Part shown: in pieces, positions 4,695 to 47,725 of the stretch
Numbering within the stretch: position 1 is the first letter of the stretch
Layout: every line of letters begins with the position of its first letter
DNA from: Escherichia phage AnYang
Strand: one strand, 5' to 3'
Sequence record: MK234886
Length of the DNA: 64,000 bases
Position numbers and translations under genes: made by a program
Notes under the pieces: generated by a model
The model's database searches: none
The model's input: only the letters and a program-made list of their open reading frames with translations
What the model was told of the DNA's origin: nothing

Positions 4695-5303
4695 TTATTT
4701 ACGAGTCTTTTCGAACTGGGCTGCGTCACCTGCAAGGCGGCCGGCTTGGCGAAGTTTGTTATTGATTTCTTCGCGCATAGGCTGGGTATACTTAAGGCCT
4801 TCAACCGTCAGATAGAGACGATACAGGTCTGGGGTATCCAGGTTGTTAATGTGTTGACCATTACGAAGAGCGTTGAATTCACGAACAAGGTGTTTAGTTT
4901 CAGATTCGATTTCAGAAACTAAAGAAGCCAGTTGGTTATATTTTTTAACTATAGTGCTGGTGTCAAACTTGATTTTAGGTTTAGGAGCTTCTTTTACAGG
5001 TTCTGGTTTAGGCGTCGGTTTCGGTGTTGCAACTTTGGGCTGAGCCGCAGGTTTAGCAACAGGAGCTTTAGTAGGTTTAGTAGCGCCACCAGCTACGATA
5101 TCTTTAAAAGCTTTGGAAGCTTTGTAATATTCTTTCTGGTTACTGGTGTCGAGCCCATACATATCATAGACGTTTTTAAAGAATTCGGTGGTGGTTTTAG
5201 TCCCAGAAATTTTATCATAAGCTGCTTGCCACATATCTTTAGTCATGCGAACGCCGGCTTCACTCAGAATGCTTTCGTTCAAAAATTCATTGTAAGTTTT
5301 CAT
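4695..5303 (-). CDS. internal-protein-like (IPIII-like) packaged protein with N-terminal capsid-targeting-type leader MKTYNEFLNES and Lys/Pro-rich centre
   Basis: leader resembles T4 IP CTS MKTYQEFIAE; late promoter TATAAATA upstream; 202 aa. Confidence 0.55.
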   Translation of the reverse strand: MKTYNEFLNESILSEAGVRMTKDMWQAAYDKISGTKTTTEFFKNVYDMYGLDTSNQKEYYKASKAFKDIVAGGATKPTKAPVAKPAAQPKVATPKPTPKPEPVKEAPKPKIKFDTSTIVKKYNQLASLVSEIESETKHLVREFNALRNGQHINNLDTPDLYRLYLTVEGLKYTQPMREEINNKLRQAGRLAGDAAQFEKTRK

Positions 5304-5331
5304 TGGTATTTCCTAAGTTAATTAACTTATC

Positions 5332-5339
5332 TATTTATA
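5332..5339 (-). promoter_or_regulatory. T4-type late promoter TATAAATA (minus strand)
   Basis: exact TATAAATA about 30 nt upstream of ATG 5303, leader AACTTAGGAAATA. Confidence 0.55.
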
Positions 5340-5345
5340 CAAAAA

Positions 5346-5365
5346 GCCCAACCTTTCGGAAGGGC
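5346..5365 (-). terminator. hairpin GCCCUUCCGAAAGGUUGGGC + U-run (minus strand)
   Basis: inverted repeat followed by TTTTTG on minus strand, downstream of 5372-5926 gene. Confidence 0.5.
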
Positions 5366-5371
5366 TGTAAA

Positions 5372-5926
5372 TCAGTTCTTATAGAATCGGAACGGGTTTA
5401 CGTGGAAGGCTAACATAGCCTTAGGGATTTTACGAGACAAAAGACTCTTAAGTTTCCAACCACAGTACACGCGAAGGTAAAAGGTAATACCTCCAACCTT
5501 AAGATAAGGAACCGAAGCAAAAACTCCCCATGCGTCATCATTCCACATCCATAGCCACCCGTGATGAGCTTTATCAGGGGAACCTGATTCCACATCAGGA
5601 TTACCGCGATAATGGAATTCTGAGCTACAATCACGTCCGAGTTTATGGTAAGCAAAGTTATAAGCTTTATTTCGCCATAGCCAAGCTACTCTCTGGAGAT
5701 AAACGCCAAAAGGTAGTTTTCTGATTTTAGCCCAACGTTTAATGTGACCTTTATCACCGTCAATTGGATTATCGTATGTCATCATCCAATCAAAGCCATA
5801 TGGTAATTTACCGGTCTTTTTATTGTGGAAAGGGACTACAAAAGGTGCAAGGATAACAGCCAGAACCATAGAGATAAAATCTAGAGGGACCAACAGAACC
5901 CAACTCAAATATTTTAAAAGTTTCAT
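5372..5926 (-). CDS. hypothetical membrane-anchored Trp-rich protein (184 aa), late-expressed
   Basis: N-terminal hydrophobic helix WVLLVPLDFISMVLAVILAPFVV; TATAAATA late promoter and AGGAAA RBS upstream. Confidence 0.55.
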   Translation of the reverse strand: MKLLKYLSWVLLVPLDFISMVLAVILAPFVVPFHNKKTGKLPYGFDWMMTYDNPIDGDKGHIKRWAKIRKLPFGVYLQRVAWLWRNKAYNFAYHKLGRDCSSEFHYRGNPDVESGSPDKAHHGWLWMWNDDAWGVFASVPYLKVGGITFYLRVYCGWKLKSLLSRKIPKAMLAFHVNPFRFYKN

Positions 5927-5952
5927 ATTATTTCCTAAGTTAGTTTACTACA

Positions 5953-5960
5953 TATTTATA
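5953..5960 (-). promoter_or_regulatory. T4-type late promoter TATAAATA (minus strand)
   Basis: exact TATAAATA about 27 nt upstream of ATG 5926. Confidence 0.55.
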
Positions 5961-5967
5961 CAAAAAA

Positions 5968-5989
5968 GGCCCGACCTTTCGGAAGGGCC
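5968..5989 (-). terminator. hairpin GGCCCUUCCGAAAGGUCGGGCC + U-run (minus strand)
   Basis: inverted repeat followed by TTTTTTG; third copy of same element at 47703-47725. Confidence 0.5.
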
Positions 5990-5995
5990 TTTAAC

Positions 5996-6225
5996 CTAGG
6001 GTAACCTTGTCGGGGTTCCACCTGCTAGGCAAGTGTTCGGTGCGCCGTTTCAGCTGTGATATAAGGGACTTTAAGAGGAACTCATGTACGCCTTAAAGTC
6101 GGGTCTTATTCAGGGAACTTCAGTCCGACGACTTACCGGTAGCGACCCGGTTTCTTGTTTGTTGCGCCGGTGAATGCTGGTAATCAGTCTTCATACGACG
6201 GCTTGACTATATAATAGTCTTCATT
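5996..6225 (-). ncRNA. candidate small stable RNA(s) adjacent to tRNA-Arg (positional analogue of T4 RNA C/D)
   Basis: 230 nt with no ORF over 25 codons and no RBS, between tRNA-Arg and a terminator; no canonical tRNA T-loop found. Confidence 0.25.
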
Positions 6226-6300
6226 TGGTATCCCGCCCTGGGATCGAACCAGGACCGCAAACTTAGAAGGATCGTATGCTATCCATTACACCAGCGGGAC
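6226..6300 (-). tRNA. tRNA-Arg (anticodon UCU), CCA encoded
   Basis: 75 nt cloverleaf read on minus strand: 7-bp acceptor stem, T-arm CCUGG-UUCGAUC-CCAGG, anticodon loop CUUCUAA. Confidence 0.85.
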
Positions 6301-6305
6301 GTAAT

Positions 6306-6971
6306 TCAAAATTTTATTTTACGGCCTTTATTCCAACCTTCAGGAATAATATCCGTTTTGTTAATACGTTTAGAAACTTTTTCTTCTAAAGAATGAATCC
6401 ACATTTTTCCATATCCGGAATTATTTTCACCTTGTTGGTGTTTATTTCTGGCGTGAGATTCTTTCATTTTATTTTTGGTTTCATCTGAATGGGTCTTACC
6501 CAAGAAAGATTTAGTATTTGAAAATTTCTCTCTATACTTAGGATTATCCCAAAGTTGTTTAAACCTTTCTGAACCCATTTTACGATATTTTTCTTTAAGG
6601 TCTGGGTCGTTCTCAAATCTGGTTTTAAAAGCGGCAACTCCTTTTAAGGAAGCTTCTTTCTTTTTATCTAAATATTCTTCAGTGTTTAAATGGTCCCAAC
6701 CACCTTCACCGCCTAATTTCAAATTATAAACATCGGGGCGCTTTAAAAACTCTTCAGTCACAATATTCTTTTCTGACTCAAACATAGAGATTTTATCGTC
6801 AAAGAACTCTAATATTTCTTTAGAGAAATTTTCTATACCGTATTTGGCCTGGGCCCTTTTCAAGAGTTTACCGGAACCAAAATATGCATCATTCAAATTT
6901 TCGGTTGAATGGGCTCCTATATAGATTTTATTATTAATTTTGTTTGTTATTTTATAAGTGTAATGGAACAT
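6306..6971 (-). CDS. segB: GIY-YIG homing endonuclease, SegB-like (221 aa)
   Basis: N-terminal YTYKITNKINNKIYIGA motif; sits between two tRNA genes as segB does in T4; AGGAGA RBS. Confidence 0.75.
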   Translation of the reverse strand: MFHYTYKITNKINNKIYIGAHSTENLNDAYFGSGKLLKRAQAKYGIENFSKEILEFFDDKISMFESEKNIVTEEFLKRPDVYNLKLGGEGGWDHLNTEEYLDKKKEASLKGVAAFKTRFENDPDLKEKYRKMGSERFKQLWDNPKYREKFSNTKSFLGKTHSDETKNKMKESHARNKHQQGENNSGYGKMWIHSLEEKVSKRINKTDIIPEGWNKGRKIKF

Positions 6972-7012
6972 AAATATCTCCTATTTCTAAGAGTATTTAT
7001 GTTCTCAAAATA

Positions 7013-7083
7013 TGGCCCTGGGTGGAATCGAACCACCATCCAGCGATTATGAGTCGCTCGCTTGACCGTCCAGCTACAGGGCC
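7013..7083 (-). tRNA. tRNA with CAU anticodon (Ile2/Met type), CCA not encoded
   Basis: cloverleaf on minus strand: acceptor GGCCCUG/CAGGGCC, anticodon stem-loop GCGA-CUCAUAA-UCGC, T-arm GGUGG-UUCGAUU-CCACC. Confidence 0.8.
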
Positions 7084-7088
7084 TTAAT

Positions 7089-7355
7089 TTAAATTACAAA
7101 TCCAGCAGGAGCATTATCATCTTTAGCCATGTGCTGAATTGTATGATAAGTCATTTCTTCAGGAGCAACCAGATAAGCCGCAGCGTTAACTAGTGGAATT
7201 ATTTTTGGTTTAGCGAATGTGCTATCGGCAATTGCCATAAAGGGCTCGCCGTCGGTCTCAACTTCACCAAATTGGCATTCATATGAAATAGAACAACGTT
7301 TGGTAGTTGTTGTCTTGGTTTCCGGGTCATAAAAAGCTAATTTTAATACTAACAT
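7089..7355 (-). CDS. hypothetical protein (88 aa; ORF track start 7361 is GTG)
   Basis: ATG 7355 preceded by GAGGTG RBS. Confidence 0.45.
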   Translation of the reverse strand: MLVLKLAFYDPETKTTTTKRCSISYECQFGEVETDGEPFMAIADSTFAKPKIIPLVNAAAYLVAPEEMTYHTIQHMAKDDNAPAGFVI

Positions 7356-7393
7356 AAACACCTCAAATAAAATTAAGTAAAGTAAGTTTGATT

Positions 7394-7439
7394 AATAGAC
7401 CTTGTCTATTATGAAAGGTTCTTTGAGGGAAGAACCTTT
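7394..7439. other. two adjacent hairpins (AATAGAC-ctt-GTCTATT and AAAGGTTC-N10-GAACCTTT)
   Basis: inverted repeats in the 130-nt spacer between two minus-strand genes. Confidence 0.35.
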
Positions 7440-47702: not shown

Positions 47703-47725
47703 GGGCCCAACCTTTCGGAAGGGCC
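47703..47725 (-). terminator. hairpin GGCCCUUCCGAAAGGUUGGGCCC + U-run (minus strand)
   Basis: third copy of the element at 5346 and 5968; T-run on minus strand. Confidence 0.5.

Follow-up and report, generated by a model that had tools for sequence, protein, structure and literature searches.

What does a small, Trp-rich membrane protein do for a T4-type phage when its gene lies, with a putative late promoter of its own, in a block of tRNA and accessory genes? The question is raised by an open reading frame (ORF) of Escherichia phage AnYang (sequence record MK234886), of which we analyzed a window of 64,000 nucleotides (nt). The window comes from a Dhakavirus (JS98-like, T4-type), and its best DNA match is KIT01, with 95.5% identity over 95% of the query. 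The ORF encodes a protein of the DUF7338 family (Table 1). We tentatively propose, giving the idea somewhat less than an even chance, that this protein is a dispensable accessory factor which is made late, binds or modifies an envelope component, and assists lysis or release. An earlier note on this DNA, made from the letters alone, had offered lysis timing, superinfection exclusion, and envelope modification as candidate roles; all three are still live, and the analysis narrows them only in part.

The ORF starts with ATG, ends with TGA at 5372-5374, and encodes a product of 184 amino acids (aa). It is certainly coding, because it has a full-length match to Pfam PF24027 (DUF7338) and homologues in 591 phage records, as found by tblastn. 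Specifically, the PF24027 match (E 4.7e-64, 215.8 bits against a cutoff of 27) covers residues 1-183 of 184 and profile positions 1-179 of 180, and the match to phrog_2143 ('unknown function') has an E of 1.7e-79. Full-length profile match, size, helix, and three conserved motifs are those of DUF7338/phrog_2143, and the protein is an ordinary member of the family with nothing deviant about it. The gene itself is already known: near-identical copies have been deposited as 'hypothetical protein', among them that of the Dhakavirus KIT01 (98.9% identical), and Pfam and PHROG entries exist. The earlier note had called the product a protein of unknown function, which still holds in that no function is assigned, but the family had been catalogued before.

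Other searches return little beyond the family itself. Our literature search found no paper naming DUF7338, and the family has neither a solved structure nor an assigned function. Profile searches of NCBIfam and of PDB sequences gave no match, and the PADLOC defence and exclusion profiles gave none at E ≤ 0.1. Down to E = 1, Pfam reports DUF7338 only, and no holin, Imm/Sp, lysozyme, amidase, or peptidase family. No domain fusion is seen in ten longer members, which carry DUF7338 alone in Pfam. In P0080, a metagenomic member of 288 aa, the domain continues into a C-terminal extension with GCGPSW...SCDKHDNCY...LSCDW, after which comes another hydrophobic helix; the pattern is reminiscent of the phospholipase A2 signature, a tentative reading for which Pfam, PDB sequences, and 102 fetched loci gave no support.

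The family belongs to phages. Homologues found by tblastn are 92-99% identical within Dhakavirus, 80% in STP4-a, 60-76% in other Straboviridae including RB43, RB16, and Klebsiella phages, and 55-58% in Felix O1-like phages; a Yersinia phage also has one, and several jumbo phages have copies at ~30%. Named members are Felix O1 ORF48 (Felix01p097), RB43 ORF080w, Bas63 gp153, and SUSP1 agp134. A profile search of 1.84 billion representatives gave 856 clusters at 50% identity, nearly all of them stand-alone proteins of 165-200 aa; 146 members examined have a mean length of 184 aa. Among bacterial genomes taken at one per species (185,579 species) we found only nine loci, all prophage-like or probable phage contigs; the copy in Roseomonas is in a prophage on a megaplasmid. 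No copy is found in 5,426 complete genomes of E. coli, and a host or prophage origin in E. coli is thus unsupported. The identifiable hosts of the phages and prophages that carry DUF7338 are all Proteobacteria.

The protein contains a single N-terminal membrane helix and a Trp-rich domain. This architecture had been described in the earlier note and is borne out by hydropathy and composition, and the peptides cited there are all found in the translation (WMMTYDNP at 47-54, AWLWRNK at 81-87, HHGWLWMWNDDAWGV at 121-135, and YCGWKLK at 154-160). The 19-residue Kyte-Doolittle mean reaches 2.4 in the hydrophobic segment at about residues 7-33 and is at most 1.1 elsewhere in the protein; all of the 146 members are hydrophobic at the N-terminus, where the 19-residue mean is never below 1.17. 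Trp accounts for 10 residues (5.4%), the top value among the 68 window ORFs of at least 100 aa, in which Trp content averages 1.39% with a 99th percentile of 5.3%. Trp, Phe, and Tyr together make up 33 of the 184 residues, and the isoelectric point is 9.9. The richness in Trp is family-wide, with a mean of 6.0% in the same 146 members.

The domain is predicted to lie in the periplasm. In the 146 members, the charge of the N-terminal flank of the helix is +2.1 and that of the 15 residues past the helix is +0.1, and the N-terminal flank is the more positive one in 85%. Two extended variants have the same bias. Specifically, P0180 has a Lys/Arg-rich N-terminal tail of 30 residues, and P0158 has an additional helix and a 55-residue Arg/Lys-rich loop ahead of the canonical helix. 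Flank charges and variants thus point to an N-in/C-out protein, whose domain would lie beyond the cytoplasm.

Conservation was computed over 199 family members with a median identity of 31% to the query. Near-invariant residues are P28 (90%), P42, T50, D52, N53, G57, D58, W82, R85, N86, Y89, G123, G156, W157, and K158; T50, D52, G57, W82, R85, N86, G156, and W157 are conserved at 96-99%, and D56 and R152 at 70-80%. Many of these residues fall in three motifs: an acidic loop, a motif with the family form W-L-x-R-N-x-x-Y, and G-W-K (Table 1). The acidic loop, D52-x-[P/S/T/D/N]-x-D56-G57-D58, resembles DxDxDG metal-binding loops, and by this analogy it is a candidate metal-binding or catalytic loop. 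Together with a cluster of Arg, Asn, Tyr, Lys, and Trp (W82, R85, N86, Y89, W157, and K158), it looks like a ligand-binding or catalytic site, unlike what would be expected of a pore-former or holin. Two other candidates were rejected: at the position of His61 family members have H, W, F, or Y, which argues against a catalytic residue, and the Cys positions vary, which argues against a conserved disulfide.

Structure prediction, which the earlier note had suggested, gave a confident model. The AlphaFold2 model, made with 28 sequences, has a predicted local distance difference test (pLDDT) score of 95.7 and a predicted template modelling score of 0.84. It contains a long helix (residues 2-33, pLDDT 90-97), five short helices (residues 43-95), and a five-stranded antiparallel sheet (residues 105-183), with G-W-K at the end of strand 147-157. 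Comparison of the model with solved structures found no relative of this fold. Among predicted viral structures (BFVD) there are few significant matches, all to unnamed or uncharacterised phage proteins, one of which is auto-labelled 'Envelope protein', and these yield no functional clue.

The gene has a transcription unit of its own. An exact TATAAATA promoter inside the early accessory block had been proposed, and the exact octamer is indeed present in this tRNA/e.x block, 26 nt 5' of the ATG. The window has 20 copies of it, where shuffled sequences have 7.5 +/- 2.8, and on the minus strand upstream of 12,400 it is found only three times, at 5332, 5953, and 12411. The late-promoter role of TATAAATA is established as the T4 late-promoter consensus, and from this consensus we infer that it acts as a late promoter here. 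Of seven close Dhakavirus loci, five keep the octamer at an unchanged distance from the gene, and two close Dhakavirus relatives lack it; near-consensus late promoters are found in Karamvirus-like phages (CATAAATA) and in STP4-a (AATAAATA).

The promoter and gene are flanked by two hairpins. The upstream one is terminator-like and would close the tRNA/rnaD-like unit just 5' of the late promoter, and the downstream one, which begins 7 nt past the stop codon, is likely the terminator of a monocistronic late transcript. Such a hairpin pattern has three occurrences in the window, against 0.01 expected by chance. The hairpin/promoter/ribosome-binding segments before the ORF and before the next gene are 85% identical over ~70 nt, and the 14-base ribosome-binding region has two exact copies, at 5929-5942 and, before the next gene, at 5307-5320. 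Because of these duplicated segments, the ORF reads as a monocistronic unit between terminators, with the late promoter as its sole recognizable promoter.

The duplicated segment is itself of note. It comprises hairpin, U run, TATAAATA, TAACTTAGGAAATA, and ATG, and occupies 5924-6000 and 5301-5372, both on the minus strand; a third exact copy of the GCCCTTCCGAAAGGTTGGGC hairpin is at 47705-47724 on the same strand. Its makeup recalls the promoter/stem-loop cassettes of T4-type phages and suggests a regulatory cassette that is mobile. In the RB43, RB16, and Klebsiella-phage loci (L003, L006, L035-L041, and L070) and in L027 and L030, a GC-rich hairpin with a U run precedes the gene, and Shine-Dalgarno sequence and ATG follow within ~10 nt with no intervening promoter. 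The position of the hairpin 5' of the gene is kept across T4-like lineages, while its sequence varies. The promoterless arrangement suggests expression by read-through, or a role of the hairpin in RNA processing or stability.

These features can be arranged into a mechanism. The order hairpin, TATAAATA, Shine-Dalgarno, ORF, hairpin would provide self-contained late transcription. The product would be a bitopic inner-membrane protein, anchored by its helix with the N-terminus in the cytoplasm, and its basic, Trp-rich, mixed alpha/beta domain of 150 residues would face the periplasm. The protein would be made as infection ends and, working on the periplasmic side of the inner membrane, would target some conserved part of the Gram-negative envelope; peptidoglycan, lipopolysaccharide or another glycolipid intermediate, and phospholipid are candidates. 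In this way it would assist or modulate the breakdown of the envelope and the release of progeny, beside the true holin, endolysin, and spanins.

The gene neighbourhoods of the family link it to lysis genes and, more widely, to tail fibres. The neighbourhood set comprised 78 IMG/VR loci and the bacterial loci, clustered at 80% identity into ~34 lineages. In Mu-like prophages, the DUF7338 gene is inside the late operon and overlaps by 4 nt either the preceding fibre-chaperone gene or the following holin gene. In Jeongeupia it is followed by Phage_holin_8, Phage_holin_3_7, and Peptidase_M23, in Aquitalea by genes for a 118-aa membrane protein and a GH19 endolysin, and in L023 by genes for an endolysin and an Rz-like spanin. 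L009 and L088 have an endolysin gene one or two genes downstream, and in the L080 jumbo-phage group a GH19 endolysin gene is directly upstream. A trio of tail fibre, chaperone, and DUF7338 is found in Chitinivorax, Jeongeupia, two Aquitalea prophages, a JGI contig, and Roseomonas. Among the three genes upstream, most Pfam families are those of host recognition, with Phage_Mu_Gp48 and DUF4376 four times each, Gly_rich_2 three times, Gp53-like_C twice, and single cases of Baseplate_J, GpJ FNIII-A, Phage-tail_3, fibre adaptor Gp77, Phage_tail_APC, and DUF2612. Tail fibres were also recognized by PHROG scans, in L007, L009 (central tail fibre J), L079, L088, and the L011 jumbo-phage group.

In large virulent phages, the gene is instead associated with tRNA arrays. 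Seven lineages have it inside, or less than 1 kb from, such an array: Felix O1-like, Dhakavirus, RB43-like, RB16-like, two Karamvirus-like with 19-tRNA arrays, and a jumbo-phage group of ~237 kb. Because homing endonucleases are found there too, and because the proteins of Felix O1 and Dhakavirus share 56% identity, we interpret this position as a hot spot of horizontal transfer. A functional tie to tRNAs was judged less likely, homing endonucleases sharing those regions. In Felix O1-like phages, 18-19 nt separate the DUF7338 gene from the tRNA before it and 9 nt from the tRNA after it, and owing to this tight fit the gene must be expressed from a tRNA precursor transcript. The embedding is similar in the two 19-tRNA T4-like lineages and the ~237-kb jumbo group; the loci concerned, Felix O1-like ones included, are L002, L005, L024, L011, L031, and L064.

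Linkage to lysis genes and the one-helix layout raise the question of whether the protein is a class-III-like holin or antiholin, which either forms the lesion itself or restrains the real holin via its periplasmic domain. T4 T provides the closest parallel. Specifically, both proteins have one membrane helix on the N-terminal side, a periplasmic domain of ~150 residues and late expression are known for T and predicted for DUF7338, and the T4 gene order 37-38-t is similar to the fibre-chaperone-DUF7338 order of Mu-like prophages. The gene is directly upstream of holin genes in Jeongeupia, and several GenBank records of Felix O1-like phages label it 'holin'. The holin of Felix O1 has never been pinned down, and ORF48 is not on the list of candidates (PMC3185647, PMC4837284). 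However, there is no shared sequence: hhalign of the family alignment against T4 T gave a probability of 0.1% (E 0.56, 14 columns), in agreement with the earlier note, which had not recognized the protein as T. Moreover, DUF7338 coexists with T homologues in LHE83, KP13MC5-1, and Lw1 and with two holin-family genes in Jeongeupia. The presence of the same domain beside unrelated holin types argues against a holin-specific partner, and invariant polar residues across sequences of 30% identity are atypical for holins. We also found no homologue among characterized T4 proteins, the comparison covering the T4 syntenic region, the gene t region, and the PHROG table; the PHROG table, which covers T4, T5, and SUSP1, lists phrog_2143 once, for SUSP1 only.

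Published knockout data define the holin question further. In the PhageMaP study of Bas63, the homologue, gene 153 (with a BLAST-derived label 'holin*'), scores +0.89, +0.84, and +1.85 in S17, while the endolysin gene 123 scores about -1.1 and the other 'holin*' gene, 29, scores -0.35 to -0.48 in S17 and -1.4 to -1.7 in MG1655 (bioRxiv 10.1101/2024.10.10.617714, supplement 3). The scores indicate that the DUF7338 homologue is dispensable and not an essential holin, a role that is excluded for the Felix O1-type homologue; coexisting T homologues and the tolerated Bas63 knockout together rule out a sole, lysis-essential holin. An antiholin whose loss is tolerated or favoured in the laboratory would fit the positive scores. 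Overall, a holin or antiholin function appears quite improbable, and nothing here supports the 'holin' label that several Felix O1-type records carry. In Bas63 (MZ501086), gene 29 (locus L004, 23322-23693) is a small gene directly after the tail-fibre genes with negative fitness in both S17 and MG1655; as the holin of Felix O1-type phages it is a stronger candidate than the DUF7338 gene. In the CRISPRi-ART study of SUSP1, agp134 is classified 'Semi-Fit', with a score of 1.24 and p 0.087 (PMC11879866); the effect is mild, and polarity on the surrounding tRNAs could explain it.

Among known lysis proteins, DUF7338 also has a likeness to the i-spanins lambda Rz and T4 PseT.3. Like them, it is, by prediction, a type II inner-membrane protein with a periplasmic domain, is encoded in or beside lysis cassettes, is confined to phages of Gram-negative hosts, and is dispensable in the laboratory. 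Unlike them, it has a compact alpha/beta model with no long coiled coil, and no lipobox ORF, as expected of an o-spanin partner, is nested in or adjoins 5372..5926. In addition, the phages already own spanins, for example the Phage_lysis gene of L023 and the i- and o-spanins of Bas63. A signal-arrest-release endolysin or tethered muralytic enzyme was rejected, as the helix is strongly hydrophobic (2.4), whereas such enzymes have a weakly hydrophobic one rich in Gly, Ala, and Ser, and neither a muralytic Pfam family nor a structural match is found.

The linkage to tail fibres suggests a different comparison. T5 llp, phi80/N15 cor, HK97 gp15, P22 gtrABC, and epsilon15 gp21/22 are tail-adjacent exclusion or conversion genes; they encode small envelope proteins directly after tail-fibre or tailspike genes, are dispensable in the laboratory, as is DUF7338, are expressed early or in lysogens, and are mostly receptor-specific. 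DUF7338, in contrast, has no homology to them, is kept across phages with unrelated receptors, and appears to be late. T4 Imm and Sp are likewise small T-even accessory proteins of the membrane or periplasm. Their genes are early, whereas the only recognizable promoter of the window gene is late and lies behind a putative terminator. The earlier note had set Imm aside, and no Pfam match to the Imm/Sp families is found down to E = 1.

By analogy with such genes, DUF7338 could serve superinfection exclusion or self-protection, its periplasmic domain blocking other phages or lysis-from-without via a generic envelope component, and could travel as a moron-like passenger of the fibre module. Consistent with this, it is directly after fibre and chaperone genes in Mu-like phages, a lambda-J-type siphophage, a jumbo-phage group, and Roseomonas, among others; the Roseomonas trio sits between portal and capsid genes, and the Chitinivorax copy is the last prophage gene before host genes. 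Dispensability in laboratory strains and residence, in virulent phages, in hyperplastic hot spots of tRNA arrays and homing endonucleases point the same way. The gnarl genes, which are O-antigen-modifying accessory genes of lytic phages, provide a precedent for envelope-modifying accessory genes in such phages (PMC12373910). Kinship with gnarl genes themselves was rejected, as these are of 40-90 aa and unrelated, and DUF7338 motifs do not occur in the supplements of that paper (PMC12373910). However, the prophage copies are packed in the late operon with overlapping stop and start codons and have no separate promoter and terminator of the lysogen type, and the late promoter in the window sets the gene apart from imm and sp. 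Synthesis only minutes before lysis would leave little time for the outer membrane to be remodelled, and outer-membrane receptors are out of reach of a domain that is tethered to the inner membrane. Since its sequence is kept across phages with unrelated receptors, DUF7338 cannot be receptor-specific, and no PADLOC match points to exclusion. We therefore regard an exclusion function as unlikely.

The same linkage would also be expected of a membrane-bound helper of tail-fibre or particle assembly, or of a component delivered with the virion. The late promoter fits such a role, as do the tight linkage with tail-fibre and chaperone genes, the internal-protein-like gene with a capsid-targeting sequence next to the ORF in the window, and the record of Yersinia phage GN1, which says 'structural protein'. 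Mass spectrometry of Felix O1 virions, however, found 17 proteins (ORFs 23, 36, 49, 53-55, 57-59, 63, 64, 67-69, 73, 74, and 77), among which the neighbour ORF49 is reported and ORF48 is not (PMC3185647). The N-terminus of the window protein, MKLLKYLSW, differs from the capsid-targeting sequence MKTYxEF of its neighbour, the homologue is dispensable in Bas63, whose structural genes score negative, and fibre assembly takes place in the cytoplasm, not in the periplasm, where the domain is predicted to be. A virion role is thus unlikely, and a morphogenetic or virion-delivered function as a whole seems very improbable.

Several observations weigh against our proposal of an accessory lysis or release factor. 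The tail-fibre and chaperone pair is the most consistent neighbour, in at least 12 of ~34 lineages, while adjoining lysis genes are found in about six, and the fibre-linked copies of L008, L015, L094, L096, and Roseomonas have no adjoining lysis gene. Because lysis cassettes often come after tail-fibre genes, the link to lysis may be a by-product. Every phage examined owns a full lysis set, leaving no gap for DUF7338 to fill, and the homology and fold matches give no biochemical hint at function. The orthologues of RB43, RB16, and Klebsiella phages have no TATAAATA, the hairpin being followed directly by the ribosome-binding site; because many orthologues are like this, late timing is predicted for AnYang from its sequence and is not a property of the family. 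The domain is strongly basic, with a mean net charge of +7 in the 146 members, and a cytoplasmic, membrane-hugging domain would fit this charge too, the periplasmic placing being predicted from the positive-inside rule. Finally, PhageMaP and CRISPRi-ART disagree mildly, and both concern laboratory strains only.

A more specific version of the proposed accessory role can be put forward. DUF7338 might represent a novel type of periplasmic enzyme, or of ligand-binding module that depends on metal, with a fold not known from solved structures; in phages of Gram-negative bacteria it would act late to modify or cleave a conserved envelope molecule, and it would spread horizontally between unrelated phages with tail-fibre modules and tRNA arrays. 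We consider this conceivable but doubtful.

The genes around the ORF in the window correspond in part to those of T4 (Table 1). In the direction of transcription, the block starts with tRNA-Met, a homing-endonuclease gene, and tRNA-Arg, followed by a spacer homologous to T4 rnaD. The window has two tRNA genes, against eight in T4. No rnaC counterpart could be aligned in the spacer between tRNA-Arg and the ORF, and Rfam applied to 5200-7400 reports the two tRNAs only, with no model for the rnaD-like spacer. Homologues of e.8 and e.6 come after the gene for a 202-aa protein, which itself follows the ORF. At the syntenic site of T4, tRNA-Arg, rnaD, and rnaC are followed directly by e.8, with neither a DUF7338 gene nor a 202-aa gene.

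The 202-aa protein starts with a sequence that fits the capsid-targeting sequence of T4 IPI, IPII, and IPIII (MKT[YF]xEF). It is 30% identical to IPIII, and its middle region is rich in Pro, Lys, and Ala; judged by these features it is probably an injected internal protein. Internal proteins have recently been tied to anti-restriction (PMC12373910).

Table 1. Positions of the DUF7338 gene, its sequence elements, and neighbouring features in the 64,000-nt window.
Feature	Position	Strand	Basis or remark
DUF7338-family coding sequence, stop codon included	5372..5926	-	ORF listing and Pfam/PHROG matches
Single membrane helix, codons 7-33, LSWVLLVPLDFISMVLAVILAPFVVPF	5828..5908	-	Hydropathy maximum 2.4; AlphaFold helix 2-33
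Acidic loop TYDNPIDGD, motif T-x-D-N-x-x-D-G-D, codons 50-58	5753..5779	-	T50 98%, D52 96%, N53 84%, D56 70%, G57 96%, D58 89%
Motif W-L-W-R-N-K-A-Y, codons 82-89	5660..5683	-	W82 99%, R85 99%, N86 99%, Y89 89%
Motif G-W-K, codons 156-158	5453..5461	-	G156 98%, W157 96%, K158 91%
Ribosome-binding region TAACTTAGGAAATA	5929..5942	-	Read from sequence; Shine-Dalgarno
Putative T4-type late promoter core TATAAATA	5953..5960	-	Exact match, 26 nt 5' of ATG
Upstream hairpin GGCCCTTCCGAAAGGTCGGGCC with U run, terminator-like	5962..5988	-	Terminator scan; -16.8 kcal/mol, z = -2.7
Downstream hairpin GCCCTTCCGAAAGGTTGGGC with U run	5340..5365	-	Pattern match; -12.8 kcal/mol, z = -3.3
Second TATAAATA	5332-5339	-	After hairpin 5340-5365, before 202-aa gene
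202-aa protein gene, with own hairpin and TATAAATA	4695..5303	-	Starts MKTYNEFLNE
Spacer homologous to T4 rnaD (species 2 stable RNA)	~6038-6161	-	Between tRNA-Arg and ORF
tRNA-Arg	6226-6300	-	
GIY-YIG/NUMOD3 homing-endonuclease gene, segB-like	6306..6971	-	Between tRNA-Met and tRNA-Arg, the T4 segB position
tRNA-Met	7013-7083	-	First in transcription order of local block

DUF7338 is thus a large and strongly conserved family of Proteobacteria phages, whose genes recur in two suggestive places, behind tail-fibre genes and ahead of lysis genes. The 'holin' label of Felix O1-type records should not be propagated further. If the reading as a periplasmic enzyme or ligand-binding module is right, the protein would be a further player in lysis and release beside holin, endolysin, and spanin, or would provide generic late protection of the envelope. 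If it is an envelope-directed enzyme or regulator, it would be a new component for the well-studied lysis or exclusion pathways of Gram-negative bacteria.

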